This document shows positions 1,307-61,000 of a stretch of DNA of 64,000 nucleotides, one piece after another. Origin of the DNA: a bacterium. GTDB lineage: Bacteria > Zhuqueibacterota > Zhuqueibacteria > Residuimicrobiales > Residuimicrobiaceae. Numbering within the stretch: the stretch's first letter is position 1; each line of letters opens with the position of its first letter. The notes beneath the pieces were generated by a model that ran no database searches, was not told where the DNA came from, and saw only the letters and a program-made list of their open reading frames with translations. Made by a program: the position numbers and the translations under genes. The DNA lies in NCBI GenBank assembly GCA_035388125.1, contig DAOOPF010000004.1, positions 540 to 64,539 on the forward strand, written 5' to 3'.

Positions 1307-1346
1307 AAAAAAAAGCGTCCATCTCTGAGAGATGGACGCTTTTTTT
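1307..1346. terminator. Bidirectional rho-independent terminator between convergent genes
   Basis: A8 run, stem GCGTCCATCTC / GAGATGGACGC (11 bp, small loop), then T7 run. Lies between the stop at 1294 (+) and the stop at 1372 (-). Confidence 0.85.
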
Positions 1347-1371: not shown

Positions 1372-2349
1372 TCACGGCTTATATTTCGCCGCCTCCTTTT
1401 CGCATTCTGCCGCCAGCTCATTAAATCGAACAACCTCGGTCACATCTTCCTTCAAGGGCACCTGACGGTTGCTTGAGGTGACAATCTTGCGTCTGTTATC
1501 GAGCTGCAGAGTCAGAACTCCGGCATATTTGCCCATGGATGGGGTCGTGACGATGCGGACGGGATTTACTGCGCTGCTCTGGCTGGCGACGAGATAGTGC
1601 TCTCCGCCGAAAACGGTCAGATCAATACCAGGGACAGCCGCGAGGAGAGCGGTCAACTGCTGGTATTTGCCGTAATAAAGGAGAATAACCAGGTCTGCTT
1701 CCTTGCTGATTTGCGGCATTATTTCCCTGGCCGTTTCGACCGGATCCCGATAGAGCAGCTCCGGTTCGCCGGGCCGGTTGACAAACAGCTGGGCCAGGCT
1801 ATTATCCGTCAAACCCAGCATGGCGATGGAGAGCTTTTTAAAGGGCAGCTTGCCACGGCCGGATGCTGCTTCTAATTCTTTGATCACATACGGTTTGAAA
1901 ATTGCCGATCCCGAATTCTTGTCAACGACGTTCGCGCAGAGAAAATTCACCTTGAACTCTTGCTCGAGGCCTTGCAGAAAAGTTGTGGGGTTGCTCCACT
2001 CCCGGTAGCCGAGATTGAAGGCCGAGTAATCGAGCCAGCTCATCCCCTGGACGAGATAGCGGTTCTGGAGCTGGCTGCCGGGAGTATGGACACGCGAAAA
2101 GCCACCGGCATCAACAAGCAGGTTAAAATCAGCTGTGGAGAGATCCTTTTCGAGAAAACCGGCCCGCCGGGCCAGTCCGCCGTAGCGTGCGGACTTTCAG
2201 CCACATGGGGTAAGGTAGCCAATCAGGTCATTGGAATAATAGACATTCAGGCTCGCTCTTTCACCCTGCTGCGGAAGGGCGCGGGGTGCGATGGCGAACA
2301 AGATGAAAAGAGCGGCGTGCAGTGCAGATCCGTTCCGGAGGAGACGCAT
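1372..2349 (-). CDS. Secreted UshA/5'-nucleotidase-like (degenerate metallophosphoesterase) protein, 325 codons, with one in-frame TGA at codon 51 (2197-2199): candidate selenoprotein, alternatively a pseudogene
   Basis: Reading from ATG 2349 gives MRLLRNGSALHAALFILFAIAP (signal peptide) ...YYSNDLIGYLTPCG-TGA-KSARYGGLARRAGFLEKD..., continuous into the 1372-2043 ORF (same frame; 2349-2043=306, 2199-2043=156). The C-terminal part looks like a 5'-nucleotidase N-terminal domain (DLVILLYYG, GGEHY). Confidence 0.6.
2158..2199 (-). promoter_or_regulatory. In-frame UGA plus SECIS-like hairpins (candidate selenocysteine insertion element)
   Basis: Minus strand: UGA AAGUCCGCACGCUACGGCGGACUGGCCCGGCGGGCCGGU. 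Hairpin 1 is AGUCCGC/GCGGACU (nt +2 to +23). Hairpin 2 is ACUGGCCC-GGC-GGGCCGGU (nt +21 to +39, 8 bp including one G-U, G-rich apical loop about 29 nt after the UGA). Confidence 0.45.
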
Positions 2350-7476: not shown

Positions 7477-8382
7477 TCATCTTGCGCTCGTGGCCATGGC
7501 CAGAGCGATGGAGTAAAATTTGGTCTCTTCGCTGTCCGCCCGGCTGGTCAGAATCACCGGGCACTGTGCGCCAACAATTATGCCGGCCGTCCTGGATCCG
7601 CCCAGATAGGTCATGGTTTTGTAGAAAACGTTAGCAGCCTCGATGTCGGGCATGATCAGGATATCGGCATCTCCACCGACCTCGCTGGCGATTCCCTTCA
7701 CTTCGCAGGCATTCCGGCTGACGGCATTATCGACGGCCAGAGGACCATCAATAATGGCCTCTTTGATCTGGCCGCGAGCGGCCATTTGCGCAATCGCAGC
7801 GGCATCAATCGTGCAGGGCATGGAGTCATAGTTCACCTTCTCCACCGCAGCGATCATCGCCACTTTGGGCTTTATAATGCCGAGCTGATGGGCCGCATGG
7901 ACGGCGTTCTCGGTTATGGCGATCTTGCCTGTGAGGTCAGGAGCGATATTCATGGCGGCATCCGACATCAGCAGCAGTTTGTGGTAGGCAGGGACAGTGA
8001 ATGCGGCGAGATGGCTGAGGAGTTTGCCGGAACGCAGCCCTGCTTCCTTGTCGAGGACCCCCTTCAACAAAGTTGCGGTCGTGCACTTGCCTTTCATGAG
8101 GGCGTTGGCCATCTGCTGGCGCACCAGCTGGATCGCCACTGAGACCGATTGCTGCTCACTCTCGGCGTGAATGATATCAAAACTGGAGAGGTCCAGCCCA
8201 CCCTTGCCGGCAATTTCAAGAATAGACGTTTTGTTGCCGACCAGGACGGCATCAGCGATGTCACGGCTGTGGGCGAGGCAGAGGGCTTCAAGGATATCTT
8301 CATCCTCGGCCATCGCGACGGCGATCGTCCTCTTGACGTGTCCGGTGACCTGGCGAAGCATCTCCTCAAACGATGCGATCAT
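7477..8382 (-). CDS. ptb: Phosphate butyryltransferase (phosphotransacylase), copy 1
   Basis: 301 aa, typical Ptb length and sequence (AVAMAEDEDILEAL, LMSDAAMNI, GDADILIMPDIEAANVFYK, PVILTSRADS). Its ATG overlaps the vapC stop (ATGA at 8379-8382). Confidence 0.85.
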   Translation of the reverse strand: MIASFEEMLRQVTGHVKRTIAVAMAEDEDILEALCLAHSRDIADAVLVGNKTSILEIAGKGGLDLSSFDIIHAESEQQSVSVAIQLVRQQMANALMKGKCTTATLLKGVLDKEAGLRSGKLLSHLAAFTVPAYHKLLLMSDAAMNIAPDLTGKIAITENAVHAAHQLGIIKPKVAMIAAVEKVNYDSMPCTIDAAAIAQMAARGQIKEAIIDGPLAVDNAVSRNACEVKGIASEVGGDADILIMPDIEAANVFYKTMTYLGGSRTAGIIVGAQCPVILTSRADSEETKFYSIALAMATSAR

Positions 8383-8819
8383 AGTTTCTCCGGGTTGACC
8401 TGTTCCTGATCGATCGGCATTGCTATAAAAGTTTCAGCGTTCATTGCAACTGACGGAAACTTGCGGAGATACATTTTATCAACAGTGACCAGAGGCACCC
8501 CTTGTTCCTGGGCGAGTGCGACGTATTCGGCAGCATATGCAGAGCAGTCGAATTTTTCGGTCACGGTGAGAATCGCCAGAGAGGGAATCTCAAATTGGCC
8601 GCCTTGCATGAGGCTTTCGGCCTCCTGCATGATCAGGCTGGCCTGCCGGAGTGTCAGCACATTTTTGCGCAAATAATAGGCGAGCAGCTGGCGAAACTCG
8701 CTGCGCCAGAGCAGCGGGGCGATCCACTCGTCGTCCCTGCGCAGGACCTCCCGGGCCAGATCGGTTTTTTCATTATTGAGCAGCAAAGCGGCGATCATTT
8801 GTGAATCGACCACGATCAT
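8379..8819 (-). CDS. vapC: PIN-domain toxin, VapC family
   Basis: 146 aa. Acidic PIN residues in expected positions (MIVVDS, RSEF, DCSAYAAEYVALA, VTVDK). ATGA overlap with the upstream antitoxin gene. Confidence 0.8.
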   Translation of the reverse strand: MIVVDSQMIAALLLNNEKTDLAREVLRRDDEWIAPLLWRSEFRQLLAYYLRKNVLTLRQASLIMQEAESLMQGGQFEIPSLAILTVTEKFDCSAYAAEYVALAQEQGVPLVTVDKMYLRKFPSVAMNAETFIAMPIDQEQVNPEKL

Positions 8820-9058
8820 GAGCGTCCCTCATCCAGTGCTTTTTCCAGCCCTGACTGGGCGATGGAGGGCAAATCCAGCCCTTTTTGCAGCTGTTCGATC
8901 CGCTTCAGAAAGGCATCAGAATTGATGCGCTGGCTGCAAATGGCGCGCTCGATACAAACGATGATTTCACTGTTGATGCTGCGACGATTTTCCTTGGCGA
9001 GCTGCTTGAGCTTTTTGTAGAGATCGGGGGGAATCTTTTTTACGGTGATGGTCTGCAT
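8816..9058 (-). CDS. vapB: Ribbon-helix-helix antitoxin (VapB/FitA-like)
   Basis: Start moved to ATG 9058 (MQTITVKKIPPDLYKKLKQLAKENRRSINSEIIVCIERAI), which fits the RHH pattern. The longer track ORF would begin upstream of the predicted promoter -10 box. Confidence 0.7.
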   Translation of the reverse strand: MQTITVKKIPPDLYKKLKQLAKENRRSINSEIIVCIERAICSQRINSDAFLKRIEQLQKGLDLPSIAQSGLEKALDEGRS

Positions 9059-9099
9059 GAAAACCGCTCCAGAAAGGTTCTTATTTGGAACCATAATGG

Positions 9100-9128
9100 A
9101 ATATACTATATTTTTAAATAATTGTCAA
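9100..9128 (-). promoter_or_regulatory. Sigma-70-type promoter for vapB-vapC-ptb
   Basis: Minus strand TTGACA-attatttaaaaatatag(17)-TATATT, 42 nt upstream of the vapB ATG. Confidence 0.65.
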
Positions 9129-9157
9129 GATAAAATTGAAGTTAGGCCGTTTTCCAT

Positions 9158-9191
9158 AAAAAAGCGGCTGGAATCAACCTCTTCCAACCGC
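9158..9191 (-). terminator. Rho-independent terminator after buk (copy 1)
   Basis: Minus strand GCGGTTGGAA-gaggttga-TTCCAGCCGC (10 bp, one mismatch) followed by TTTTTTAT, 39 nt after the buk stop. Confidence 0.65.
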
Positions 9192-9229
9192 TCCCTGGCC
9201 ATTTTAAAAGTGCTGCAGTTGTCTTTTAC

Positions 9230-10297
9230 CTACTCATACGCTTTGGCCTGCTCTTCGCCGCGCAGAACGCGCAATGCTCCCAGGGCCAGAGCTTCCATCT
9301 CCTCCTCACCCGGGAAGAGCAGCACGGGGGCGATAAAACTGACGCGTTCGCGGATGAGTCCGGTGAAGCGGTCATCATGGGCGATGCCGCCTGTCAGCGC
9401 AACGGCATCTACCTGCCCGCTGAGTACTGCAGCCATGCTGCCGATCTCCCTGGCGATCTGTCCGGCCATCGCCTGATAAACCAGCAGCGCCTGGGCGTCC
9501 CCCCTGTCGATCATCGCCAGGACCTGGCGCATATCATTGACGCCGAGATAAGCGACAACTCCGCCTTTTCCGGTGATCATTTTACTGATCTCGCGCTCGG
9601 TATAGCTTCCCGAGAAGCAGAGCTTGACCAGCCCGTAGGCGGGCAAGGTCCCGCTGCGTTCAGGCGAAAAGGGGCCATCGCCATTAAGCGCGTTGTTGAC
9701 GTCGATGACCCGGCCCTGCCGGTGCGCAGCCACGGAGATGCCCCCACCGAGGTGGACGATTATCAGGTTGAGTTGCTCATAGGGCTTGCCAAGCTGCAGC
9801 GCCGCCTTGCGTCCCACTGCTTTATGGTTGAGAGCATGGAAAATGCACTGTTTAGGGAGAAGCGGGTGCCCGGTGAGGCGAGCTTCGGGTTCGAGCTCAT
9901 CGACGACCACTGGATCGACGATGTAGGCGGGACGATCGTGCAGGGACGCCAATTCGTAGGCGAGGATGGCGCCCAGATTGGAGGCATGTTCGCCAAACTC
10001 CGCTTTTTCGAGCTGCGTCAGCATGGTCTCGCCTACCTGGAAGGTTCCACTGGTAACCGGATGGAGCAGGCCGCCCCGGCCGACAAAAGCGTCGATCTCT
10101 CCAATCTGCACTCCTCGTTCTTCCAGTATCCTTAAAATGGCCTGCCGGCGGAAGGCATACTGGCTGTAGACCGAAGGATAGGGTGTGAGCTCTTGCGAAG
10201 AGTGCGCCATGCTCGCTGTGAAAACCGGGGTTTCATCGTGAAAAAGGGCGATCTTGGTCGAGGTAGAACCGGGATTGATGACCAGGATAGTGAACAC
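9230..10297 (-). CDS. buk: Butyrate kinase, copy 1
   Basis: Start moved to GTG 10297, preceded by GGAGG, giving (M)FTILVINPGSTSTKIALF, the canonical Buk N-terminus. This removes the overlap with apt. Has GRGG, HLGGGISV and ALTGGIAH motifs. Confidence 0.9.
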   Translation of the reverse strand: MFTILVINPGSTSTKIALFHDETPVFTASMAHSSQELTPYPSVYSQYAFRRQAILRILEERGVQIGEIDAFVGRGGLLHPVTSGTFQVGETMLTQLEKAEFGEHASNLGAILAYELASLHDRPAYIVDPVVVDELEPEARLTGHPLLPKQCIFHALNHKAVGRKAALQLGKPYEQLNLIIVHLGGGISVAAHRQGRVIDVNNALNGDGPFSPERSGTLPAYGLVKLCFSGSYTEREISKMITGKGGVVAYLGVNDMRQVLAMIDRGDAQALLVYQAMAGQIAREIGSMAAVLSGQVDAVALTGGIAHDDRFTGLIRERVSFIAPVLLFPGEEEMEALALGALRVLRGEEQAKAYE

Positions 10298-10307
10298 ACC
10301 ACCTCCG

Positions 10308-10829
10308 TTATTCGGATTCAACGTGGACAAGGGATTCAAGACGCATCGGGGTGAGGCGCTGTCGAGCCCCGAGAAAGTCCAGTTCAATGACAAAAGCGCA
10401 GCCGATCACTTCCGCTCCGAGCGCGCGGGCGAGCCGGATCGCTGCCTCCACTGTACCGCCTGTGGCGAGCAGATCATCGACGATCAGCACGCGCTGGCCC
10501 GGTTGAAGGGCATCGGTGTGCATCTCGAGACTGTCGCTGCCGTACTCTAGGGCATAGCTCTCCCGAATAGTGGCGGAGGGCAGTTTGCCGGGCTTGCGTA
10601 CCGGAACCATGCCAACGCCGAACTCATGTGCCAGGATACCGGCAAAGATGAAGCCGCGGGACTCGATGCCGATGACTGCGTCAATCCTCTCCCCTTCAAA
10701 GCGACGGCGCAGCTGTGCGATGGTTTCGCGCAGAGCGGGTCCATCGCCAATAAGAGTGGTGATATCCTTGAAGACAATCCCCGGCTTGGGAAAATCCGGG
10801 ATGCTGCGAATCTTGTCGGCGAGGTCCAT
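10308..10829 (-). CDS. apt: Adenine phosphoribosyltransferase
   Basis: 173 aa. FPKPGIVFKDIT, PRPP-binding loop VLIVDDLLATGGT. Confidence 0.9.
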   Translation of the reverse strand: MDLADKIRSIPDFPKPGIVFKDITTLIGDGPALRETIAQLRRRFEGERIDAVIGIESRGFIFAGILAHEFGVGMVPVRKPGKLPSATIRESYALEYGSDSLEMHTDALQPGQRVLIVDDLLATGGTVEAAIRLARALGAEVIGCAFVIELDFLGARQRLTPMRLESLVHVESE

Positions 10830-20683: not shown

Positions 20684-21592
20684 CTATCTGGTGCAGATCA
20701 GTTTGCCGATGGCGATCGACAGCAATTTGCTGTCGGTGCTGTCGGCGCGCGAGGGGATCAGCACCGGTGCGGTTGAACCCATGATAACATGGCCCAGACG
20801 CAGGCGGGCGAAATAGGTTGTCGATTTGGCCAGCATGTTGGCCGATTCGATCTCCGGGCAGAGAAGGATATCGGCCTTGCCGGCCACGGGCGATTCGATC
20901 CCCTTGAGCGCTGCGGCTTCTGACGACACCGCATTGTCGAGTGCAAGCGGTCCGTCGATTATGCAGCCCTTGATCTGTCCGCGCTGATTCATCTTGGTCA
21001 GAACGGCGGCGTCGATGGTGGCCGGGAGGGCGGGATTGACTGTTTCCACCGCCGACAGCACTGCCACCAGCGGCTTCTCATTACCAAGAGCGCGAGCCAC
21101 CGCCACGGCGTTCTCGATGATCTCGATTTTTTGTTTCAGATCCGGCTTGAGGGTGACGCCGCCGTCGGTGATCATCACCAGCTTGTTGCCGGGACGGGAA
21201 GGCTCCTCAAAAACGAAGAGGTCGCTGAGCAGATGGCTGGAGCGCAGCCCATGTTCGCTGTCGAGCACCGCTTTGAGCAATGCGGCGGTCTTGATCTTGC
21301 CCTTGAGCAGGATGTGAGCCTCGCCGCTGCGTACAGCGGCTACGGCACTCCGGGCTGCAGCCTCTTCCGCAGCATCGCGGATTTGAAAAGGCATCTCTCC
21401 GGAGCCGAACAGCGTTTCGTACATGGTCCGGATCTTGTCCCTGTCGCCAAAGAGGAGCGCATCGGCCATGCCCAGTTCATGGGCGGCCGCCACCGCTCCC
21501 AGCGCGGCTTCGTCGTCGGCGGCGGCGACGGCTACGGTCACTTTGGGGCCAAGACGCGCCTTGTCGAGCAATTCCTCGAAGGAGGTAATCAT
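20684..21592 (-). CDS. ptb: Phosphate butyryltransferase, copy 2
   Basis: 302 aa paralog of 7477-8382 (VAVAAADDEAALGAV, MITDGGV, ADILLCPEIESANMLAK, PVLIPSRADS). Confidence 0.85.
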   Translation of the reverse strand: MITSFEELLDKARLGPKVTVAVAAADDEAALGAVAAAHELGMADALLFGDRDKIRTMYETLFGSGEMPFQIRDAAEEAAARSAVAAVRSGEAHILLKGKIKTAALLKAVLDSEHGLRSSHLLSDLFVFEEPSRPGNKLVMITDGGVTLKPDLKQKIEIIENAVAVARALGNEKPLVAVLSAVETVNPALPATIDAAVLTKMNQRGQIKGCIIDGPLALDNAVSSEAAALKGIESPVAGKADILLCPEIESANMLAKSTTYFARLRLGHVIMGSTAPVLIPSRADSTDSKLLSIAIGKLICTR

Positions 21593-21626
21593 GAATATCT
21601 CCTGGTTGGGCCATTCTGCGCTGGAT

Positions 21627-22703
21627 TTAATAACGCCGGGCTCTCTCCTGGCCGGTGAGAACGCGCCAAGCCCCCGCGGCCAGGGCCTCCATCTCCAGTT
21701 CGCCGGCGATGATCTTGATCGGGGCGATGAATTTGATGCGAGAGCTGATCATCTCTACCAGCAGTTTGGACCTGGCGAGTCCGCCGGTGAGGACAATTGC
21801 AGAGATATCCCCGCTGAGCACACAAGCCATGGCGCCGATCTCCTTGGCGATCTGGTAGGCCATGGCCGCAAAGACCTCTCCGGCTCTGGTATCTCCGGCG
21901 TTGATGCGCCGCTCGATCTCGCGCGCGTCAGTCGTTTCAAGGTAAGCCGCCAGTCCGCCCTTGCCCATCACCATCTGTTGAATCTCCTTTTTGGTGAACT
22001 CACCGGAGAAACAGAGGTCGATGAAAGGCTGCAGCGGCAGACTGCCTGTCCTTTCAGGCGAAAACGGGCCATCACTGGAGGCGTCATTGACATCAATGAT
22101 GCGGCCGCCCTTGACAGGTGCGACGGAGATGCCGCCGCCGAGGTGGGCGACGATAAAATTGTGCTCGTTCGGATCCAGTTTCATGGACTCCGCAGCCCAG
22201 ATGGCTGCCGCGCGCAGGCTGAGCGCGTGCGATAAAGCCCTCCGGGAGATCCGGGGATGCCCCGAATAGCGTGCAAGGCGGTCGAACTCATCGACCGAGA
22301 CCGGATCGACGATAAAGGCGGCACAGCCGTAAAGTTGGGCGATTTTATAGGCGATGGCGCAGCCCATATTGGAGCTGTGCTGTCCTTGCACCCCTTTTCT
22401 GGCATCCTCGATCATCGATTCATCGACGACATAGGTGCCTCGGTTCAGGGGTTTGAGCATCCCTCCCCTGCCGACAACCGCATCGAGAGAGAAGGCTTTA
22501 AGGTTCTGGCGGTTGAGGAATGCGATAACAAGGTCGGTGCGGTAATCAAACTGATCCCATAAACCCTGGTAGCGCGCAAGCTCTTCCCGGGTGTGAACGA
22601 GATTCTCTTCCGAGACCTTGTTTTTACCGGCGAAAAGCCCCACTTTGGTTGAGGTGGAGCCCGGATTAATCACCAAAATGAGGGGCGAAAGGCTATCTGT
22701 CAT
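21627..22703 (-). CDS. buk: Butyrate kinase, copy 2
   Basis: 358 aa. LILVINPGSTSTKVGLF, GRGG, HLGGGISV, VLTGGLA. Confidence 0.9.
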   Translation of the reverse strand: MTDSLSPLILVINPGSTSTKVGLFAGKNKVSEENLVHTREELARYQGLWDQFDYRTDLVIAFLNRQNLKAFSLDAVVGRGGMLKPLNRGTYVVDESMIEDARKGVQGQHSSNMGCAIAYKIAQLYGCAAFIVDPVSVDEFDRLARYSGHPRISRRALSHALSLRAAAIWAAESMKLDPNEHNFIVAHLGGGISVAPVKGGRIIDVNDASSDGPFSPERTGSLPLQPFIDLCFSGEFTKKEIQQMVMGKGGLAAYLETTDAREIERRINAGDTRAGEVFAAMAYQIAKEIGAMACVLSGDISAIVLTGGLARSKLLVEMISSRIKFIAPIKIIAGELEMEALAAGAWRVLTGQERARRY

Positions 22704-22763: not shown

Positions 22764-24494
22764 CTATTCCTGGTATACCGTCTTTTTGGTGTAGTGGGTA
22801 TGGAGAAGCTCATGGGCCTTGTGGCTGTTGGGCTCCCCGAGGAACTCCTTGTAGAGCTGCTGCACGGCCGGATTCTCATGCGATTTCCGGATGGTTTTGG
22901 CCTGATCAGCCTGGTAGATCGCTTCGGCGCGTTTTTTCCTGATCTCCAGGGAGGTGGGAACAGGTTGTCCGCCGCCGCCGATGCAGCCGCCGGGGCAGGC
23001 CATGATTTCGATAAAATGGTAATGGGCCTCACCGGAGACGATTTTTTTCATAAGCTGGCGGGCGTTGGCAAGACCGTTGGCGACGGCCGCTCGAACAGTG
23101 AGATCACCGACCTGGACCTCCGCCTCGCGTACGCCTTCCATACCGCGGACGGCCTTGATCTCGACCTGAGCCAGGGGTTTTCCGGTGACCACCTCATAGA
23201 CGGTGCGCAAGGCGGCTTCCATGACACCGCCGGTGTTGCCAAAGATGACTGCGGCACCGGTAGAGATCCCCAGCGGTTCATCGTACGACTCTTCCGGCAG
23301 ATCGGGCAGATGAATGCCGATCTGCTTCATCATCGTCGCTGCTTCACGGGTGGTCAGGACCGCGTCGACATCCTTAAAGCCGCTGCTGCTCATTTCGGCG
23401 CGGTCGCTTTCATATTTCTTCGCGGTGCAGGGCATGACCGAGACCGAAAAGATGTTTTTCGGATCAGCGCCGATCTTTTCCGCATAGTAGGTTTTGGCGA
23501 GGGCGCCGAACATCTGCTGCGGCGATTTGCAGGAGGAGACGTGCGGCAGGAGTTCAGGATAGAAATGCTCGATGAAATTGATCCATCCGGGGCTGCAGGA
23601 TGTCAACAGGGGCAATGTGCCGCCCGTTTTGAGCCGGTGAAGCAGTTCATAGCCCTCCTCCATGATGGTCAGATCGGCCGTGAAGTCGGTGTCGAAAACC
23701 TTGTCGAAACCGAGGCGGCGCAGTCCGGCCACCAGTTTGTCAGTGACCAGCGATCCGGCAGGCATGCCGAACTCTTCGCCGATGGCGACGCGGACGGCCG
23801 GTGCGGTCTGGACAACCACATGCAGGTCAGGATTATCGAGAGCATCCCAGACCCGCTGGATGTGGCTGTTCTCATAGAGGGCTCCAACCGGGCAGCGATC
23901 GATACACTGGCCGCAGGCGACGCAGGCGACCTCGCTTAGTCCCTTGTTGAATGGGGTATCGACCCAGACATCATAGCCCCGGCTCTCCATGCCGAGGGCG
24001 CTGACGCTCTGGACCATGGTGCAGGTCTGGACGCAGCGGCGGCAGAGGATACATTTCGAGGGATCACGAACGACTGCGGGACTGGAGGTATCCAGGTCAC
24101 CCTTGCGTTCGCGGTATTCGAAGCTGATCTCACGGATGCCGAGCTGGTCGGCGACTGCGCGCAGCTCGCAGGAGCCGTTGCGGACGCATTCAGTACAGCG
24201 CATGGGATGGCGCGAAAGCAGCAGCTCCATAGCGATCTTGCGCGACTCGCGCACCACCTTGGAATTGGTGGTCACTTCCATCCCCTCTGCGACCTTCCAG
24301 GAGCAGGCCGTGCGCAGGAGACGGTCGCCCTTGATCTCGACGACGCAGAGGCGGCAGGCCGAGACCGGGGGCAGATCGGGATGATAGCAGAGACGAGGGA
24401 TATTGATGAGTGCCTGTTCGGCGGCTTCGAGGACGGTGGCATTGGCCGGCACGGTAACCTGGCGTCCATCTATGGTCAAATTGACAGTATCCAA
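22764..24494 (-). CDS. hydA: [FeFe]-hydrogenase catalytic subunit, HydABC set 1 (group A3-like architecture)
   Basis: 576 aa. N-terminal 2Fe-2S fold, CILCRRCVQTC and CVACGQCIDRCP clusters. H-cluster motifs TSCSPGW, MPCTAKKYE, EIMACPGGCIGGGGQP. Confidence 0.9.
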   Translation of the reverse strand: MDTVNLTIDGRQVTVPANATVLEAAEQALINIPRLCYHPDLPPVSACRLCVVEIKGDRLLRTACSWKVAEGMEVTTNSKVVRESRKIAMELLLSRHPMRCTECVRNGSCELRAVADQLGIREISFEYRERKGDLDTSSPAVVRDPSKCILCRRCVQTCTMVQSVSALGMESRGYDVWVDTPFNKGLSEVACVACGQCIDRCPVGALYENSHIQRVWDALDNPDLHVVVQTAPAVRVAIGEEFGMPAGSLVTDKLVAGLRRLGFDKVFDTDFTADLTIMEEGYELLHRLKTGGTLPLLTSCSPGWINFIEHFYPELLPHVSSCKSPQQMFGALAKTYYAEKIGADPKNIFSVSVMPCTAKKYESDRAEMSSSGFKDVDAVLTTREAATMMKQIGIHLPDLPEESYDEPLGISTGAAVIFGNTGGVMEAALRTVYEVVTGKPLAQVEIKAVRGMEGVREAEVQVGDLTVRAAVANGLANARQLMKKIVSGEAHYHFIEIMACPGGCIGGGGQPVPTSLEIRKKRAEAIYQADQAKTIRKSHENPAVQQLYKEFLGEPNSHKAHELLHTHYTKKTVYQE

Positions 24495-24545: not shown

Positions 24546-26174
24546 TCAGGCGGCGGCTTGATCGGCTGCTTCGAAAGAGCATTTCCCGGTCTTGCATTTC
24601 TTGTCGAGATGCTGTTCGAATTCTTCTCTGAAGTAGCGCAGGCAGCCGATGATGGGGATCGGGGCCGCCTGGCCCAGTCCGCAGAAGGCGCCTCTGGTCA
24701 TGGTCTGGGCGAGCTCCTCCATCAGCTGGAGGTCTTTGGCGGTGCCGAGGCCGGAGGTCATGCGCTCGAGGATCTCCAGGAGACGGCCGTTGCCCTCGCG
24801 GCATAGGGTACAAATGCCGCACGATTCGTGCACGAAGAACTCGACAAAGTTCTTGACCAGACCGACGACGCACTGGCTGTCATCTACAACCAACAGCGCG
24901 CCGGAGCCCATGCCCGCTCCGATTTCGCGCAGGGACTCGACACTCAGGGGCAAATCGAGGTGCTCGCTGGTCAGGATGCCGCCGGTTGTGCCGCCGAGCT
25001 GGGCCAGTTTGAAGCCTTTGCCATTGGGGATGCCGTGACCGATATCATAGATGATCTCCCGGAGGGTGATGCCCATCGGCACCTCGATGAGTCCGGGATT
25101 GTTGATATTGCCCACCATCGTAAAAACCTTGGTGCCGGGACTCTTGGCCGTGCCGATCCCCTTGTACCACTCTGCACCCCTGCGAATGATCTGGGGCACA
25201 TTGGCGAGGGTTTCGACATTGTTGACGATGGTCGGTTTGCCCCAGAGGCCGACGGAAGGCGGAAAGGGCGGCTTGTTGCGGGGTTCGCCGCGCTTGCCTT
25301 CGATCGATTCGATGAGGGCGGTCTCCTCACCGCAGATGTAGGCTCCGGCCCCTTCGCGGATCTCGATATCGAAAGCGAACGGGCTGCCGAAGACATTCTT
25401 GCCCAGCAGGCCGTGGGCGCGGGCCTGTTCGATGGCGCGCTTGACCCGGGCGATGGACATGTGGTACTCGCCGCGAATGTAGACATAGCCCTGATGAGCG
25501 CCGACAGCGTAACCGGCCAGGGCCATGCCTTCGATGACCGCGTGCGGGTCGCCTTCGAGAATGAGACGGTCCTTGAAAGTGCCAGGCTCGCCCTCGTCAG
25601 CATTGCAAATGATATACTTTTCATCGGATTTTTCTTTGGCAGCGAAGCCCCACTTCAGGCCGGTCGGGAAGAAAGCGCCGCCGCGGCCCTGCATCCCCGA
25701 CTTTTTGACCTCCTCCATGACCGCTTCGGGGGTCATTTCGGTGAGGGCTTTGCCGAGAGCTTCATAGCCATCCTGGGCAATATACTCCTCGATACTTTCG
25801 GGATCGATCACACCGGCGTTCTTGAGCACAATACGCTCCTGCTTGCAGATACGCGCCGACTTTTCACCCATCTCTCCTTCAACCGAAGGGACATCCAGAT
25901 AGTGCAGGCGCTCGACAACGCGGCCTTTGAGAAGATGTTCGGCGATGATCTCCGAGACATCTTCCATCTTGACGCCGACATAATAAACGGCATCGGGGAA
26001 TATAACCAGCACAACACCCTTGTCATAGATGCCGAGGCTACCGGTTTCGACCACGCGCACATCATCGGCGAGTCCGGCCAGGGCGACTTCCTTGACCAGG
26101 GCGTCTTTGACCGAGCGAGCGCCCTGCGATATGGTGTGGGCATCCATCGCCACCAGAATATGGATTCTATGCAT
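24546..26174 (-). CDS. hydB: NuoF-like flavoprotein subunit, HydABC set 1. Its N-terminal thioredoxin-like domain lacks cluster cysteines and there is no C-terminal 2x[4Fe-4S] domain
   Basis: 542 aa. GRGGAFFPTGLKW, ESCGICTLCREG. N-terminus VAMDAHTISQGA / ETGSLGIYDKG occupies the place of the CG..G / C..C motifs. Ends shortly after the LRYFREEF helix. Confidence 0.85.
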   Translation of the reverse strand: MHRIHILVAMDAHTISQGARSVKDALVKEVALAGLADDVRVVETGSLGIYDKGVVLVIFPDAVYYVGVKMEDVSEIIAEHLLKGRVVERLHYLDVPSVEGEMGEKSARICKQERIVLKNAGVIDPESIEEYIAQDGYEALGKALTEMTPEAVMEEVKKSGMQGRGGAFFPTGLKWGFAAKEKSDEKYIICNADEGEPGTFKDRLILEGDPHAVIEGMALAGYAVGAHQGYVYIRGEYHMSIARVKRAIEQARAHGLLGKNVFGSPFAFDIEIREGAGAYICGEETALIESIEGKRGEPRNKPPFPPSVGLWGKPTIVNNVETLANVPQIIRRGAEWYKGIGTAKSPGTKVFTMVGNINNPGLIEVPMGITLREIIYDIGHGIPNGKGFKLAQLGGTTGGILTSEHLDLPLSVESLREIGAGMGSGALLVVDDSQCVVGLVKNFVEFFVHESCGICTLCREGNGRLLEILERMTSGLGTAKDLQLMEELAQTMTRGAFCGLGQAAPIPIIGCLRYFREEFEQHLDKKCKTGKCSFEAADQAAA

Positions 26175-32246: not shown

Positions 32247-32636
32247 TTATTTATCCTGCAGCATGGCGTGTACCTTGGCGAGAAGAAGTTCCTTCTGGAC
32301 AGGTTTTTCGATAAAACTGTCCACAGGATTCCACTCGACATCGGGGCCAATGCGCAGATTGAAGGGATGTTCCCGGTTTACACCGGTCAGCATCAGGATG
32401 GGGGTGTGGCGGATCGCCTCATGCTTGCGAATCTGCCGTGCCACCTCGAATCCTTCACCGACCGTGCTCATCATTACGTCCAGAATGACCAGATCCGGCC
32501 GTTCCGCGATCACCTTTTCCAGTCCTTCGGCTCCGCTGAAAGCGGCCACAACCTCATAGCCGGCCATGGTGAGAAGGGCGCGGTTCAGTTCGACGATATC
32601 GATGTCATCGTCGATCAGTAAAATCTTTTTACTCAT
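32247..32636 (-). CDS. Single-domain response regulator (receiver only)
   Basis: 129 aa. ILLIDDD, LVILDVMM, ILMLTG, FIEKP. Its ATG overlaps the stop of the upstream kinase gene (ATGA at 32633-32636). Confidence 0.85.
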   Translation of the reverse strand: MSKKILLIDDDIDIVELNRALLTMAGYEVVAAFSGAEGLEKVIAERPDLVILDVMMSTVGEGFEVARQIRKHEAIRHTPILMLTGVNREHPFNLRIGPDVEWNPVDSFIEKPVQKELLLAKVHAMLQDK

Positions 32637-34684
32637 TGCATGCTCTCCTGCACAGCTTTGAAATCGAAAGCAGCGGCATGGACTGCATTCTGAACCGGCA
32701 ATTCCACCGTGAATGTCGATCCATGATCGACTTCACTCTTGACGGTGATGCTGCCGCGATGCATTTTAATGATGCCATAGGCGATGGCCAGCCCGAGGCC
32801 GGTCCCCTTGCCGATCTGCTTGGTGGTGAAGAAAGGTGTGAAGAGTTTGTTCATATTTTCAACCGGGATGCCCCCGCCGGTATCGATAAAGGCGATGCGC
32901 ATTTGCTGCCCGTCGGCTGTGACTGTGGCCTGGATGGTCAGTGTGCCTCCCTCAGGCATGGCTTCAGCGGCGTTGACCGCCAGGTTGAGAAAAACCTGAT
33001 AAATCTGATCAAAATCGACCTCGATGAGAGGAAGATCAGGGTCAAGCCTGGCGACAACATGGGTCATCTGAAAAAGCGGCTGATTGAAGGCGACAGAGAT
33101 GAGCTTGTCGAGGATCTCCTGCAGAGTCACCTTGCGCAAATTGAGTTTGCCCTGACGGGCGAAGTTGAGCAGCCCGGCGACGATCTTTTGACACCGCTTG
33201 GCTTCATCCATGATGAAGTGCAAATCCTTGCTCTTCTGGTCGTCCTCCTTCAACTGTTGCAGGAGGAGATGAGCGTAAAGCATGATCGAACCGAGGGGAT
33301 TATTGACCTCATGGGCAACCCCGGCTGCCAGCTGTCCGATCGAGGCCAGTTTCTCATGCTGAATGAGCTGCTCCTGGGCGTCTGCCAGATCGCCCAGAGA
33401 TTCCTGCAGCTCTTTCTGGGTGTGCTGCAGTTCCTCGATAACGTAAGGAAGACACATCTCTTCCTCAGCAAAGCCCTGAAAGACCGCTTTGGCGTATTCG
33501 CGGCAGGTTTCATAGCCGCAGGCTCCGCAGTTCAGTTCGTCGGAGGAGATGGCTTTCTTGATCTCCTTGAGGATCAGCCTGATCTCGTCCTCCGTGGGTT
33601 CAGGTTTTTCCTTGACCGCGGGTTTGAAGGAGCGGTGGATCACGACATCCTGATACTGGAGGATGGCCTTTTTCCATTCCGCATAGTTGGTCTGCATGCG
33701 CAGCGAATCGGTATAGGCGACGATCTTTTGTTTGCGGGTGAAAAAATTCAGCGAGGTGTCCGTGAAAGGCCCGCTGATACACCCCTCGCAGAAGAGGATA
33801 TCAACCAGACTCGCCTTGACCTGATGGTTTTTCAGGCTTTCCAGCAATTTGAGCACGCGCTGTTTGCCTTCGGTGACGACCACTTCGTTGTTCATCAAAT
33901 CGAAAGGCAGGCCGGCACTGCGCAACAGCCCTCCAGAGACCGGATAGAGGCGTCCGAGATAGGCATGAGGCGGATCAAAGGCGACCGGCTCAGCCTGGGC
34001 GGGGTCGATCCCGCGGCGTTTCCAGAGTTCCTTCAGTTCTGCGTAGGTGAGCACCTCGTCCACGGCGTCCGAGACCTCGGGGTCGAGCATCTCGACTTTT
34101 TTAGCCGTGCAGGGACCGATGAAGACCGTCCTGACCTCTTCGCCATAGCAGCGGCGGACAACCCTTCCCATAGCGACCATGGGGCTGACTATCGGGGCCA
34201 GATTGGGCACCAGTTCGGGAGCCGTGCGTTCGACCAGTTCATAGATAACCGGACAGGAGCTGGTAATCAGCGGCAGGGCGATCTCCTGGCCGTCCAGAGT
34301 CTGTTTGGAGTTGACCAGACGGTAGTATTCACGATTGATCAGATCCGCACCGTAGGCGACCTCGACCACGTGCTGAAAACCCGCCTTGTGCAGGGCCCCG
34401 GCAATCTGTTCCCCCTCCAGATCCGGCAGGCCGGCCGGAAAAGAGGGAGCGATCATGGCGACGACAGGATGGCCGCTCTTGAGAAAGCGCTCGACCGCCT
34501 CCACCCCGCTCTTCACCGCTTTGGCCCCCTGGGTGCAGACGGTGACGCAATGTCCGCAGCCCAGACAAAGCTCCTCCACTACCTTCGCCTGGCCTTTGAC
34601 GACCATGATGGCTTTGGCGGGGCACTCGCGGATGCAGGAATAGCAGCTTTTACAACGTTCCTCTATGGTCCATATGACGGACAT
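32633..34684 (-). CDS. Sensory [FeFe]-hydrogenase-like protein fused to a histidine kinase (HydS-type H-domain + extra Cys4 motif + HisKA/HATPase)
   Basis: 683 aa. CKSCYSCIRECP and CLGCGHCVTVC ferredoxin motifs. H-domain motifs ITSSCPV (P1), GPCTAKKVE (P2), DILFCEGCISG (P3). CGACGYETC motif. Coiled coil, H-box VAHEVNNPL, then NAAEAM, DTGGGI, GTGLGL. Confidence 0.8.
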   Translation of the reverse strand: MSVIWTIEERCKSCYSCIRECPAKAIMVVKGQAKVVEELCLGCGHCVTVCTQGAKAVKSGVEAVERFLKSGHPVVAMIAPSFPAGLPDLEGEQIAGALHKAGFQHVVEVAYGADLINREYYRLVNSKQTLDGQEIALPLITSSCPVIYELVERTAPELVPNLAPIVSPMVAMGRVVRRCYGEEVRTVFIGPCTAKKVEMLDPEVSDAVDEVLTYAELKELWKRRGIDPAQAEPVAFDPPHAYLGRLYPVSGGLLRSAGLPFDLMNNEVVVTEGKQRVLKLLESLKNHQVKASLVDILFCEGCISGPFTDTSLNFFTRKQKIVAYTDSLRMQTNYAEWKKAILQYQDVVIHRSFKPAVKEKPEPTEDEIRLILKEIKKAISSDELNCGACGYETCREYAKAVFQGFAEEEMCLPYVIEELQHTQKELQESLGDLADAQEQLIQHEKLASIGQLAAGVAHEVNNPLGSIMLYAHLLLQQLKEDDQKSKDLHFIMDEAKRCQKIVAGLLNFARQGKLNLRKVTLQEILDKLISVAFNQPLFQMTHVVARLDPDLPLIEVDFDQIYQVFLNLAVNAAEAMPEGGTLTIQATVTADGQQMRIAFIDTGGGIPVENMNKLFTPFFTTKQIGKGTGLGLAIAYGIIKMHRGSITVKSEVDHGSTFTVELPVQNAVHAAAFDFKAVQESMQ

Positions 34685-34708: not shown

Positions 34709-36415
34709 TTAGGCGCGTTCCACATAGTGGGTGTGGAGCAGTTCATGGGCCTTGTGGCCGTTGGGCTCGCCGAGGAATTCCTTATAAAGGCGCATCACCG
34801 CTTCATTCTGGTGTGAAGCGCGTTTGGGCAAGGTGCGATCGATGGCATAGATAGCCTCCATGCGCTTGCGCACCCGGTCCGGGTCGCTGTTGATGGGCTG
34901 GCCGCCGCCATTGATGCAGCCGTTCGGGCAGGCCATGACCTCGATGAAGTGATAGGTGTTCTCGCCGGAGCGGATCTTGTCAAGGATGGTGCCGATATTC
35001 TTCAGTCCGCTGACGGCGGCTACCTTGATGGTCAGGTTGGCGATGGTGACCTCGCCCTCCTTTACTCCCTGCAGACCACGCACCGGCGTGAACTCGACAT
35101 TATCCATCTCCTTGCCGGTGAGGAAAAAGTGGGCGGTGCGCAGAGCAGCTTCCATGACCCCGCCGGCGGCGCCGAAAATGACCGCGGCACCAGTCGACTC
35201 GCCCATCGGATCATCGAAATGTTCGTCAGCGAGCTTGGTGAAATCGATGCCGGCGTTCTTGATCATGCGCGCCAGCTCGCGTGTAGTGAGCACCGCATCG
35301 ACATCGCTGAATTCCTCTTTCAGTTCCGGGCGCTGGGCCTCGAACTTTTTGGCGATACAGGGCATGATCGAGATGACATAGATGTCCCTGGCAGGAATGC
35401 CGGTCTTTTCGGCGTAGTAGGATTTGATCAGCGCCCCCTCCATCTCGTGCGGCGACTTGCAGGAGGAGACATGCGGGAGCAGATCAGGATAAAAATGTTC
35501 AATATACTTGACCCAGCCCGGACTGCAGGAGGTCAGCAGCGGCAGCTTGCCGCCGTTATTGACCCGATGCAGCAGTTCGGAGGCCTCTTCGATGATGGTC
35601 AGGTCGGCGCCAAAGTTGGTATCGAATACCCGGTCCACCCCGAGCCGGCGCAGGGCGGCGACAATCTTGCCAGTGACCACGCTGCCCGGTTCCATGCCGA
35701 ACTCCTCGCCGAGGGCGACGCGTACGGCCGGTGCGATCTGGGCGACGACATGCTTTTTGGGATTATTGATCGCCTCCCAGGCGATTTTTTCGTTGCTCTT
35801 TTCGCGCAGTGCGCCAACCGGGCAGACCGTGATGCACTGGCCGCAGAAGACGCAGGCGATGGCATTGAGGCTGCCGTCCATGGCCGGAGCGACTGCGGTC
35901 TTGAAGCCGCGGCGGACAAAATCGATGGCGCCCACATTCTGGACCTCATGGCAGACGCGTACGCAGCGGCCGCAGAGGATGCATTTTTCAGGGTCGCGCT
36001 CGATCGAGGGGCTGGCCACGTCGATCTTGCCGCCGCGAATCTCACCGGCATAGCGGACATCGCGAACGCCGTACTGCGCCGCCAGATCCTGCAGCTCGCA
36101 GTTGCCGTTGCGCACGCAGGTGAGGCAGTCCTGGGGATGGTTGGCGATAAGCAGCTCGACGATGGTCTTGCGGGAACGGCGCACACGGGGTGAATTGGTC
36201 AGAACCACCATACCCTCGGTTACCGGGTAGGCGCAAGCGGGAATCAGATTGCGCTGTCCCTCGACCTCGACCACGCAAACCCGGCATGAGCCGGTGGGGC
36301 TAAAACCCTTGAGATAGCAGAGGGTGGGAATCTGGATGCCCTCGCGCTGTGCGACAGTGAGGATGGTTTCGCCCGGATTAGCCCAGCACTCTTTATTATT
36401 AATCGTTACCTTCAT
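34709..36415 (-). CDS. hydA: [FeFe]-hydrogenase catalytic subunit, HydABC set 2
   Basis: 568 aa. CILCGRCVRVC, CVFCGQCITVCP. TSCSPGW, MPCIAKKFE, EVMACPNGCINGGGQP. Confidence 0.9.
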   Translation of the reverse strand: MKVTINNKECWANPGETILTVAQREGIQIPTLCYLKGFSPTGSCRVCVVEVEGQRNLIPACAYPVTEGMVVLTNSPRVRRSRKTIVELLIANHPQDCLTCVRNGNCELQDLAAQYGVRDVRYAGEIRGGKIDVASPSIERDPEKCILCGRCVRVCHEVQNVGAIDFVRRGFKTAVAPAMDGSLNAIACVFCGQCITVCPVGALREKSNEKIAWEAINNPKKHVVAQIAPAVRVALGEEFGMEPGSVVTGKIVAALRRLGVDRVFDTNFGADLTIIEEASELLHRVNNGGKLPLLTSCSPGWVKYIEHFYPDLLPHVSSCKSPHEMEGALIKSYYAEKTGIPARDIYVISIMPCIAKKFEAQRPELKEEFSDVDAVLTTRELARMIKNAGIDFTKLADEHFDDPMGESTGAAVIFGAAGGVMEAALRTAHFFLTGKEMDNVEFTPVRGLQGVKEGEVTIANLTIKVAAVSGLKNIGTILDKIRSGENTYHFIEVMACPNGCINGGGQPINSDPDRVRKRMEAIYAIDRTLPKRASHQNEAVMRLYKEFLGEPNGHKAHELLHTHYVERA

Positions 36416-58092: not shown

Positions 58093-61000
58093 CTACTTGA
58101 GGTAGAGCATGCGCTGGATTTTGGTATAGCTGCCAGCGACCAGACGGTAGAAGTAAATACCGCTCGCCATCTCCTGCGGACGCCAGGCGGTCTCGTAAAT
58201 GCCTGGTGCCTGTTCCTGATCGACCAGAATCGCCACCTCCCTGCCGAGGACATCGTAGATCCGGAGGGAGACCCGGGCCTGCGCAGGCAGCTGGTAGCGG
58301 AACTTGGTAGTGCCGTTGAAGGGATTGGGATAATTGTTTTCGAGCTTGAAGGTCTGCGGAATCTCCGCGATCTCTTCGGCTTCGTTCGCCGGCACGGCGC
58401 CGAGGCGGCTCTTGGTCTGGACCTGGAACTCCACTACCTGACGGTAGAGGCTGTAGACCGGTTCCAGAAGGACCAGCTTGACGTAGCGGGCCTTGACGTT
58501 GGTGCCGAGCGCATACCAGGTCTCATCGCCGCTCTTGATCCGGGAGGTATAGACCTCCTTGAAATCAGCCTCTTCGGTGCTTGCAGTGGAGACCAGCACC
58601 TTGAAACGGGCAGCCTGACGGCCTGATTCGCTGTCATCATCGCTGCCATTGTCGGTCTGCAGGACGAGGTAGTTGAACTTGTAGAGGCCTCCGTCCGCAA
58701 AGCCGTAGATGGCCCACGGCGATTTCTGGGCGTTACCGTACTCAGGCGAGAGGGCTGTTGCCGTGCCGCCCCATCCTTCCGTAACGCCGTCAACTGCCTT
58801 CTCCCAGCCCTCCTTGCTGTGGGTGGGCGAGCCGGAGATGAAGACAAGCTGGTTGGGTTTCAGCTCTTTCCCATCAGCAGCAGCAGTGACTGAGCTGGTC
58901 ACGTCGGCTCCGGTGAGGTTGTTCTGGAACCAGGCCCCGTTGGCGTAGGGATTGATCGCGTCATTGACCGGCACGACGGCCAGGAAGAGCTTGTCGCGGT
59001 CCTGACGCATCAGGGTGTACTCGGTGACGTTGCCAAGGAAGAGCGAATCGGGCCGGATAAAGGAGCAGGGCTCGAAATGGCTGCGATCCTTGGCAGTGTA
59101 GAGCACATAGCCGGAGGCGTGGACTGCGGGCTCCCAGCTGATCTTGATGCCGGTGAGCGGGGTTTCGATGACGGTGACCTTGTTCGGTGCGATGCCGGCG
59201 GCATCGTCTGCCAGGGAGATGGCATCGAGGTGGCGGCGGGCGAAGAAGAGGTCCATGGCCCTTTCCGCTTTGGCTTCGATGGCCGCGGCCTGGTCCGGAC
59301 GCAGCCGGGCGGCGATGCGGGCCTGGTGGATATGCTGTGGCACCAGGAGACCGAGGTTTTCAAAGTCATATTCGCGGCAGTCGTTCTTGTGCTTGCGCAC
59401 ATAGTCGCGGGTCTTGACGATGAAATTGTAATGCCATTCAAGAGAAGGCTGGATGGCGCTGCCGCGGTTGTGATCATTCCAGGTTTCGATCAGGATCCAC
59501 GGCATATCCAGAGCGCCCTTGTAAGCAAAGGCCTCTTCCCAGGTCCAACGGTAGGTGAGGGTATCGCGACGGGACATCCAGTGTTTGTCGCCGATTGTCC
59601 AGCTGCGATCATCATAGCCGGGCCAGACACTGCGTACGCCGAAGAGGAGATTACCCTGTGCGGCGGGCGAGTTGGCCCGTGCATAGAACTGGTCAAGATA
59701 GGGCTTGCCCCAATCCTTGCCGGTGAGGTCGTCCCACTTTTCGGGCAGGGTCTGCACCCAGGGATAAACCACATCCATGGGGACAAAGATCTCATCCTCG
59801 ACGCCGTTCCAGGCCAGGAAGGCATCCTTGGGCAGCGTGGTATCCGCCACGACACGGTAGGTCTCGGGCAGGATGTTCACCTCCGGCTGATTGTAGATCC
59901 AGAGCGGCCGGCGGCGTCCCTCGCGGGTGCCCCAGTAGGCGGGATGGGTCATGAGCGAATCGGCGACGTAGACCATATTGGAGTCGATGGCGCCGATAGC
60001 GCGTTCATTGTAGGAGCAGATGATCTGGAAGTTAAAGCCCTGACCATTGTAGCGCTCCCACAGGCGGTCCGCCGTATCCAGAAGACCGTTGATACCGATG
60101 TTTTCATACGACTTGTGTCCGAACCAATCGACGACAAAGCCATCGATGCCGGATGCCCAGGCGAGGAGAATGTCGTACTCCCACACCAGGGGATCGCGGG
60201 ACGAGAAGAATTCGAAGAGGCTGGTGTCGGCCTGTCCGCCCAGATACTCCGGTTTCCAGTGGCGCAGGGAGGAATCGGCGTTGGCACGGTCGTACCAGGG
60301 TTCATACCAGGCCAGAACGAGTTTGTCGCAGCCGGCATCCTCGCGCCAGTAGCCGAAATCGGCCTCCCGGTAGTGCTGCTGATCGGCGAGAGTGACGATG
60401 TACTCGCTGAAAGCCGAGGTCAGGAAATACCCTTCAGGCAGGGTCGAGACATCGACATAGACGCGATACTCGCCGGGCAGGAGCGTTCTGAAGAGGTACT
60501 TGCCTTCGGCATTGGTGAGCTGCTTGGCGGTCTCGCCGGTGTTGATCTCCTCGAGGCGCAGGAGAACATTGGGGATTCCCGGTTCGCCCGGATCCTGCAG
60601 GCCGTCGCGGTTGATGTCGAACCAGACGAAATCGCCGATGCTGCCATAATTGGAGCGGTAGCCGAAATCGGCATCGCGGCGGTGCTCATCCGGAGCCAGG
60701 CAGAGCGTCATGGGATTGTTGTAGGTGCTGGTGACGTAGCTGCGCGGCAGGGTCGTTTCATCGACGCTGACGATGTAGCAGCCCGGCACGACATCATCGA
60801 AGAGATAGTTGCCGTTTTCGTCCGTGACTGTCTCCGCGACCGGATTGCCGAGGGTATCGGTGAGGACGACGCGGATGCCGGGCAGGCCCATTTCATCAGC
60901 ATCCTGCACCCCGTCGTTACTGTTGTCTTCCCAGACATAGTCGCCGACGGAGGCCAGTTTGATGAGGCCGGCATCCCAGGTGGAATCATGGACCGCCAGG

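Follow-up and report, generated by a model that had tools for sequence, protein, structure and literature searches.

The in-frame UGA and its column in relatives

Can a gene whose reading frame is crossed by a stop codon still encode a single protein? This question is raised by a UshA-like (5'-nucleotidase-like) gene near the left end of the 64,000-nucleotide stretch of DNA analysed here as a whole (the window; contig DAOOPF010000004.1 of assembly GCA_035388125.1, from a bacterium of the Residuimicrobiaceae). On the minus strand, the frame runs from an ATG at 2347-2349 down to position 1372 and comprises 325 codons and a terminal TGA, its sole interruption being another TGA at 2197-2199 (codon 51), exactly as a preliminary description of the locus had laid it out. 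The read-through translation around codon 51 (*) is ...YYSNDLIGYLTPCG*KSARYGGLARRAGF... (in an alternative extract, ...NVYYSNDLIGYLTPCG*KSARYGGLARRAGF...), and the local motif, T47-P48-C49-G50-U51, puts a cysteine two residues ahead of the predicted selenocysteine (Sec, U), a C-G-U spacing that had been pointed out before and that turned out to be an invariant pair. The UshA-like gene was the only gene in the window to be split by a TGA with coding context on both sides, and no Cys paralogue of it was found within the 64 kb. Our analysis indicates that 1372-2349 on the minus strand is very probably one intact gene for an exported UshA-like selenoprotein of the CxU (Cys-x-Sec) type, with about 300 residues in its mature form; the actual insertion of Sec at codon 51 and the export of the protein are both predictions from sequence.

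The TGA was retained throughout the orthologues. We fetched 33 orthologous loci, as syntenic orthologues and by scanning genome and metagenome collections, which represented 20 distinct DNA versions, and all 20 carried a TGA at the codon-51 column, at protein identities ranging from 37% (L027) to 100% (L015). The motif around this column reads (Y/V)(L/V)(T/K/D)PCG-TGA-(K/R/G), and conservation in the same frame continued both upstream and downstream of the TGA. Over the ten codons preceding it, third positions varied in 10/10 and second positions in 1/10, with 736 synonymous and 264 nonsynonymous pairwise codon differences; these ten codons are thus under purifying selection in the frame of the gene. 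The identical TGA was found in independent assemblies and in many metagenomes, including the contig L015, which is 100% identical to the window gene. This excludes an assembly error or a strain-specific lesion, the two caveats that had been attached to the codon at the outset.

Upon searching 5.8 billion predicted proteins with the read-through translation, we obtained 24 homologues, all of them N-terminally truncated (199-270 residues, compared to 325), as is expected if gene callers stop at the TGA in every orthologue. None of the 24 was a full-length Cys form from within the close family. Public entries miss both the signal peptide and the Cys-x-Sec pair (P0003, P0008 and P0019 among GenBank annotations of metagenome-assembled genomes; P0005, P0014 and P0015 from JGI), and the annotation labels in the subfamily are either 'hypothetical protein', at 223-224 residues, or '5'-nucleotidase', at 258-263 residues. 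The mis-annotation of this stand-alone subfamily, whose members are free of the cytochrome domain described below, is systematic.

Outside the close family, the Sec column was found to be occupied by cysteine. Distant homologues carry the PCGC motif that the preliminary description had tentatively named, relatives at 25-30% identity read NGYLTPCGCSKPMVGGIPRRAT at this column, a tandem paralogue at the locus L006 reads HCAC, and Cys fills the column in all 56 full-length Cys-form superfamily members that cover it. With residues 52-325 as the query, an exhaustive HMMER search retrieved 1651 relatives at E <= 0.001 from 1.84 billion cluster representatives, and 235 of them reached E <= 1e-10. Among the best 150 of these relatives, many full-length proteins carry (P)CGC followed by GG.(A/P)RRA, and many others begin at MARRAT... 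or LGGLARRA..., just past the Sec column, the latter being mis-called Sec forms. The column on which the earlier proposal hinged was accordingly found to hold TGA in every orthologous DNA version and Cys in the distant homologues and in the tandem paralogue.

The tandem paralogue lies directly downstream of the Sec gene (L006:10899-11876) and is a full-length Cys protein of 325 residues with the motif HCACK and no cytochrome domain. Of the two related loci L006 and L011, the paralogue check covers L006. Such a tandem Sec/Cys pair in one genome amounts to a natural experiment on the usage of Sec versus Cys.

A stem-loop over the codons that follow the UGA

Two hairpins had been proposed immediately 3' of the UGA, and while both can be drawn in the window sequence, only the second behaved as a conserved selenocysteine insertion sequence (SECIS). 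This hairpin 2 (CUGGCCC-GGC-GGGCCGG at 2159-2175, extendable to 10 bp in the window) overlaps the codons G58-L-A-R-R-A-G-F65. In an alignment of 17 distinct sequences from the TGA onwards, RNAalifold recovered it as columns 26-31 pairing with columns 35-40 around a 3-nt loop, and pairing was retained in 98% of cells over 6 bp and in 93% over 7 bp. The pair 30/36 is C-G in nine sequences, U-A in eight and broken in none; the pair 25/41 is C-G in eight sequences and G-C in three, and the pair 27/39 occurs as G-C, G-U and A-U. None of 500 shuffles reached the observed pairing or covariation score, and sliding the 3' arm by 1-3 columns lowered the pairing to 22-50%. Column 30 is the third position of an Ala codon (GCC/GCU) and column 36 that of an Arg codon (CGG/CGA/AGA), so the two covary at synonymous sites, which constraint on the protein cannot explain. 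When mapped on a neighbour-joining tree of the proteins, C-G at this pair is seen in the window clade and separately in L013 and L064, corresponding to at least two or three events.

Cys-form sequences served as a negative control. Of the 6 pairs, just 3-5 can form in the 23 of these sequences that encode ..RRA.., among them the L006 paralogue. The L006 paralogue shares the peptide GGVARRAT with its Sec neighbour, residue for residue, yet its codons fail to form the hairpin. Furthermore, the first Arg codon is CGG, which gives the GG of the loop, in all in-register Sec forms of the window family, while the Cys forms use CGA, CGC, CGT, CGG or AGG. Hairpin 2 is hence conserved with compensatory changes among the Sec forms, as the selenoprotein proposal had required, and missing from the Cys forms.

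Sec forms were also found at a larger distance. Two cytochrome-fused relatives with four CxxCH motifs, L064 (1324-2697) and L065 (1318-2742), are each split by a TGA into genes of about 53 and about 400 residues, and both of these, as well as the remote stand-alone L066, carry EPCG-TGA together with a hairpin at the equivalent codons; in L064, one more pair has switched from G-C to C-G. Sec forms thus occur in both architectures, stand-alone and cytochrome-fused, with a common SECIS position.

Published limits for bacterial SECIS elements (bSECIS) are a loop of 3-9 nt, a stem of 4-16 bp, a G in the first two loop positions, a spacing of 16-37 nt and a minimum free energy (MFE) of at most -7.5 kcal/mol (PMC13188914). 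The window element lies within every one of these, with its loop GGC, a stem of 7-10 bp, an MFE of -15.9 kcal/mol and a distance of 28 nt from the UGA, which bears out the SECIS-compatible spacing noted beforehand. It resembles bacterial SECIS elements, of which E. coli fdhF is the archetype, in lying inside the coding sequence immediately 3' of the UGA, in its small apical loop starting with GG, in its G+C-rich upper stem and in a spacing inside the published range (PMC13188914). Its sequence is unrelated to that of fdhF, as is normal among bSECIS elements. Two further differences from bacterial SECIS elements are an apical loop of just 3 nt in the MFE structure and the lack of an evident conserved bulged U among members of the window clade; in some orthologues, a U at column 25 would be bulged out. 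Hairpin 1 (AGUCCGC...GCGGACU) was rejected as a part of the SECIS, with several of its pairs broken in 5-9 of the 17 sequences and a performance no better than that of shuffles. Rfam gave no match on the whole window at gathering thresholds and, at permissive thresholds on 2050-2450, no family matching the SECIS region.

Fold and family of the encoded protein

A Pfam scan of the read-through protein returned no family at E <= 1, Metallophos included. The best match in NCBIfam was NF041198, 'UshA_like_PCGU', a model for a UshA-like (seleno)protein whose P-C-G-U/C motif is present in the window protein (E 2.3e-37), and it thereby lent independent support to the selenoprotein interpretation of the preliminary description. 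Weak NCBIfam matches were also obtained to UshA, CpdB and SoxB. A profile of the family matched the N-terminal domains of solved 5'-nucleotidases at E 1e-16. Furthermore, for a Cys paralogue of 42% identity (P0026), in which Cys49 and Cys51 are numbered as in the window protein, an AlphaFold (AF2) model is available at a pLDDT (predicted local distance difference test) of 90.8, and its best Foldseek matches in the PDB were 5'-nucleotidase N-domains at a TM of 0.70-0.75 and about 20% identity. With the paralogue model and the profile as proxies, the window protein most likely adopts the N-terminal calcineurin-like alpha/beta sandwich fold of 5'-nucleotidases. The C-terminal substrate-binding domain of these enzymes is absent: structures of about 500-580 residues aligned over their N-terminal ~300 residues only.

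The metal site, by comparison, has largely gone. The motifs of dimetal binding (D-x-H, G-D, G-N-H-E/D, H and G-H) are not found intact in the window protein (Table 1), and the readings NDLIG and GYRE that had been made by eye were confirmed by profile alignment to solved 5'-nucleotidases. The preliminary description had further placed the Cys/Sec pair at the D-x-H motif itself, in place of the metal ligands, which did not hold: the pair adjoins that motif and lies in the loop that leads from strand beta-1 to helix alpha-1, 8-10 residues past the retained Asp41. In a superfamily alignment of 75 sequences (stand-alone Sec, stand-alone Cys and haem-fused forms), Cys49, the Cys/Sec51 column, G58 and G82 were invariant where covered, as was G57 in all but one, and the canonical dimetal ligands were conserved in none of the three groups. 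In the profile alignment, the Sec column stands opposite a Cys of snake-venom/CD73-type enzymes, in a region where the alignment crosses an insertion.

The N-terminal domain is homologous to those of UshA, CD73, the 2',3'-cyclic phosphodiesterases and SoxB, an offshoot in sulfur metabolism. Compared to UshA/CD73-type enzymes, the window protein has other residues in place of the dimetal ligands and the catalytic His, lacks the 5_nucleotid_C domain and contains an invariant Cys-x-Sec pair. A signal peptide and a periplasmic location are the expected arrangement for periplasmic 5'-nucleotidases. The predicted signal peptide, read by eye, shows a basic n-region and a hydrophobic core and aligns with the orthologue sites AFA|Q, GYA|Q and SVA|Q; a low-confidence N-terminal helix in the paralogue structure model matches this region.

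UshA-like CxU proteins have been recorded before. The 2008 survey of the Global Ocean Sampling (GOS) selenoproteome lists 76 Sec sequences and 92 Cys homologues of the family under COG0737 (PMC2398784), a 2022 review lists it as a selenoprotein family (PMC9312934), and a 2026 review ties it to NF041198 and adds a second family, NF049981, with the motif CxxU (PMC13188914). The window protein shares with NF041198 the P-C-G-U/C motif, located identically past strand beta-1, and the helix start GG(L/I)(A/P)RRA that follows it, on a 5'-nucleotidase N-domain scaffold; with the Sec forms L064 and L065 of that family it also shares the TGA and a SECIS hairpin over the L/M-A-R-R-A codons at the same 28-nt spacing. 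Unlike the NF041198-like relatives that we fetched, it has no C-terminal tetrahaem cytochrome, at an identity to them of just 25-30%, and the old metal ligands have been lost to a greater extent in its subfamily (GD has become GG and H has become Y, among others). In the fetched Cys relatives with a score of 260 bits on NF041198, a Cytochrome_C554 domain containing four CxxCH motifs is found at the C-terminus, whereas the window protein ends at residue 325 with neither a CxxCH motif nor a cytochrome domain; going by these near-cutoff relatives rather than by the seeds of the model, the C-terminal part of NF041198 probably corresponds to this tetrahaem domain. To NF049981, a model of 262 positions, the window protein is similar as a short UshA-like selenoprotein with a weak N-terminal match, but its motif is CxU and not CxxU (PMC13188914). 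From these comparisons, we assign the window gene to a divergent stand-alone subfamily of the known UshA-like CxU selenoprotein family and not to a new kind of system.

Table 1. Positions in the window of the predicted selenoprotein gene, its RNA elements and its degenerate metal-site motifs
Feature	Position	Strand	Basis
Predicted UshA-like selenoprotein coding sequence with one internal Sec-UGA	1372..2349	-	Frame; continuous frame kept in syntenic orthologues; NF041198 best match (2.3e-37)
Predicted N-terminal signal peptide, about residues 1-26 (MRLLRNGSALHAALFILFAIAPRALP), cleavage site approximate	2272..2349	-	Read from sequence
Degenerate motif I, N40-D41-L42-I43-G44 (canonical N-D-x-H-G; ND.H to ND(L)I, His ligand to Ile)	2218..2232	-	Profile alignment; superfamily column counts
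Cys49 codon (TGT); its residue pairs with Sec51 within C-G-U	2203..2205	-	Invariant in all orthologues; 74/74 aligned superfamily members covering the column
In-frame UGA, codon 51, putative Sec codon	2197..2199	-	TGA in 20/20 orthologous DNA versions; Cys (TGY) in distant homologues and the L006 paralogue
Hairpin 1, window-specific, outside the conserved element	2174..2195	-	79% of cells paired
SECIS-type stem-loop (core stem 2169-2175 with 2159-2165, apical loop GGC 2166-2168)	2156..2178	-	Pairing; covariation; Cys-form control; bSECIS constraints
Degenerate motif II, D80-A-G-G83-F (canonical D-x-G-D; GD to GG, bridging Asp ligand to Gly)	2098..2112	-	Same alignments as motif I
Degenerate motif III, G114-Y-R-E117 (canonical G-N-H-E/D; GNHE to GYRE, Asn ligand and catalytic His replaced)	1999..2010	-	Same alignments as motif I
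Motif IV, His ligand to Tyr (LLYYG)
GGH to GGE
Terminal stop, TGA, no hairpin after it	1372..1374	-	Sequence
Bidirectional intrinsic terminator, near-perfect 18-bp stem flanked by an A-run and a T-run	1308..1346	.	Common to the convergent TSP3/OmpA gene (77-1294, +) and the selenoprotein gene

Probable decoding of the UGA, possible chemistry and genomic setting

A number of observations speak against a selenoprotein gene of this family or limit how far that reading can be taken. At the RNA level, the 60 nt after the UGA of the window sequence, folded alone, gave z = -1.35, with 19 of 200 shuffles folding as well; as single-sequence folding is thus not significant, the case rests on the comparative evidence. 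The hairpin also overlaps GG.ARRA, a motif conserved for protein reasons, so part of the sequence conservation is not RNA-driven and the RNA argument rests on the covariation at synonymous sites together with the Cys-form control. The orthologues are related, and independent compensatory events are few, about 2-4. L012 and L029 have a mismatch at pair 27/39, and the MFE limit is reached by 18 of the 19 in-register Sec forms, with L012 just short of it at -6.3. At the protein level, the match to NF041198 scores 128.8 bits against a cutoff of 275 and covers profile positions 6-300 of 519 only, and for NF049981, named 'UshA-like (seleno)protein family 2', the score is 30.4 bits, with the cutoff at 140 and coverage of positions 1-87 only. 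The structure model is that of the 42%-identical Cys paralogue and not of the window protein, the position of Cys49/Sec51 relative to the old metal site is deduced from topology, and a redox role of the pair is likewise an indirect deduction. Finally, tblastn with the E. coli proteins gave no match to selA, selB or selD in the 64-kb window or in any fetched locus, a sample too small to be informative. An NCBIfam scan of 20 window genes gave no match to SelA, SelB or SelD, with only a weak paralogous match of purM to SelD (1e-06), and ARAGORN found zero tRNA genes, hence no tRNA-Sec, in the window.

The absence of this machinery from the window and the fetched flanks would fit a read-through that does not involve Sec, either by near-cognate insertion of Trp, Cys or Arg stimulated by the hairpin or by a lineage-specific reassignment of UGA to sense; downstream hairpins can stimulate read-through in some systems. 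A changed code is countered by the window itself, where TGA is the stop codon of 7 of the 21 confidently identified genes, including the UshA-like gene, so any recoding is local, in agreement with the genuine TGA stops that had been noted from the start. Cys at this column in homologues is the classical Sec/Cys signature, an insertion of Cys would more simply be coded by TGY, as the Cys lineages do, the hairpin agrees with the bSECIS model down to the GG that opens its loop (PMC13188914), and curated resources class the family as a selenoprotein (NF041198; PMC13188914). We therefore regard read-through without Sec as very unlikely.

We give even less credence to two separate genes, namely a 50-residue exported peptide ending at the UGA and a protein re-initiated downstream, for instance at Met103. 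Database gene calls do start at internal ATG, GTG or TTG codons, but these starts differ between orthologues, and residues 52-102 (KSARYGGLARRA...VDAGGFSR...), which precede the annotated starts, are highly conserved in frame. Moreover, the Cys homologues run through this point as one polypeptide each, the paralogue model unites strand beta-1, which precedes the TGA, with the remainder in one domain, and the downstream product would be left without a signal peptide. Least credible of all is that a 5'-nucleotidase-like gene in decay carries a nonsense mutation here, or that its TGA arose through faulty sequencing or assembly. The split frame, its truncation by every gene caller and the decay-like look of the degenerate metal ligands might suggest this, but it is excluded by the recurrence of the TGA across 20 distinct orthologous sequences, which stem from independent assemblies and reach down to 37% identity, by the strong purifying selection on both sides of it in a single, otherwise undisrupted frame, and by ligand degeneration that is common to the whole superfamily while Cys49 and Cys/Sec51 are invariant.

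For the selenoprotein reading, we propose the following mechanism. The UGA at codon 51 would be decoded as Sec with the help of the coding-region stem-loop 28 nt downstream, whose 6-10 bp G+C-rich stem and GGC loop are built from Leu-Ala-Arg-Arg-Ala codons and which, by analogy with characterised bacterial SECIS elements, would recruit SelB-GTP-Sec-tRNA(Sec) to the ribosome; the second TGA (codon 326), without such a structure, would end translation. The resulting protein is presumably not a phosphoesterase, with most dimetal ligands and the catalytic His lost, and the Cys-x-Sec pair, whose two members are the only functional residues invariant across the superfamily, would be its reactive centre, most likely as a selenenylsulfide/selenol redox couple in the periplasm. 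Redox chemistry appears most likely because a scaffold without a metal site is combined with an invariant Cys-x-Sec pair and, in many relatives, with a cytochrome fusion; by analogy, the fusion to a tetrahaem c554-type cytochrome suggests a periplasmic chemistry coupled to electron transfer. Alternatively, Cys and Sec may ligate a new metal or act as a nucleophile.

The neighbourhood of the gene offered few leads on its role. Conserved operon partners were considered as a clue to function and set aside: synteny with a 972-residue NHL/PQQ-like protein and an OmpA/AMIN protein is kept among close relatives only and is changed in L006, L007 and L027, so that nothing about function was deduced from it. 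In the gap that separates the OmpA/AMIN stop (2430) from the selenoprotein ATG (2349), a strong G+C-rich hairpin (GCCGGGGAAGAGGAGG...CCTCCTCTCCCGGCGGC) occupies 2380-2426. This hairpin lacks a U-tract, its sole Rfam match at permissive thresholds on 2050-2450 was a spurious one to mir-1281 (E 0.38), and it could be a terminator lacking a U-tract or an mRNA-stabilising structure.

Further along the window, where our family-by-family gene annotation extends to about 36.4 kb, we noted two phosphate butyryltransferase/butyrate kinase gene pairs (7477-10393 and 20684-22703, minus strand). A VapBC-type toxin-antitoxin pair splits the first of these, at a position that is kept in the orthologous contigs L001, L004, L005 and L006. 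The window also encodes two NADH-dependent [FeFe] hydrogenases of group A6 (at 22764-24494 and at 34709-36415) as well as a NuoF-like subunit (24546-26174), and a histidine kinase sits between the two hydrogenases and the NuoF-like subunit (32633-34684, minus strand). The N-terminal ~300 residues of this kinase match the monomeric [FeFe]-hydrogenase model TIGR04105 at 1.5e-55, suggesting a putative H2-sensing hydrogenase-like kinase. A very long open reading frame of 1949 residues (58093-63942, minus strand) occupies the right end of the window. As judged from gene content, the butyrate pairs and [FeFe] hydrogenases indicate an anaerobic fermenter.

Beyond the reading of a single codon, we tentatively consider that the stand-alone, cytochrome-less Cys-x-Sec proteins form a distinct unannotated subfamily in which the phosphoesterase scaffold has fully turned into a periplasmic selenol catalyst. 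The C-x-U motif would then be the sole active centre, the substrate and electron partner would be unlike those of the cytochrome-fused NF041198 proteins, and the same SECIS would have been kept in both architectures since their common ancestor. This is a possibility that we hold to be doubtful; if true, it would represent a neofunctionalisation from metal-dependent hydrolysis to chalcogen redox chemistry. For annotation, the consequences are more immediate. Entries of the subfamily are mis-annotated because its scores fall short of the cutoff set for the curated selenoprotein model; with a model of its own or a lowered cutoff, many metagenome-assembled genomes would be corrected and these anaerobic fermenters flagged as selenium users. 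For the UshA-like CxU family, which has been listed since the marine metagenome surveys without an assigned function, the comparison offers a concrete hypothesis and a small, cytochrome-free test protein.

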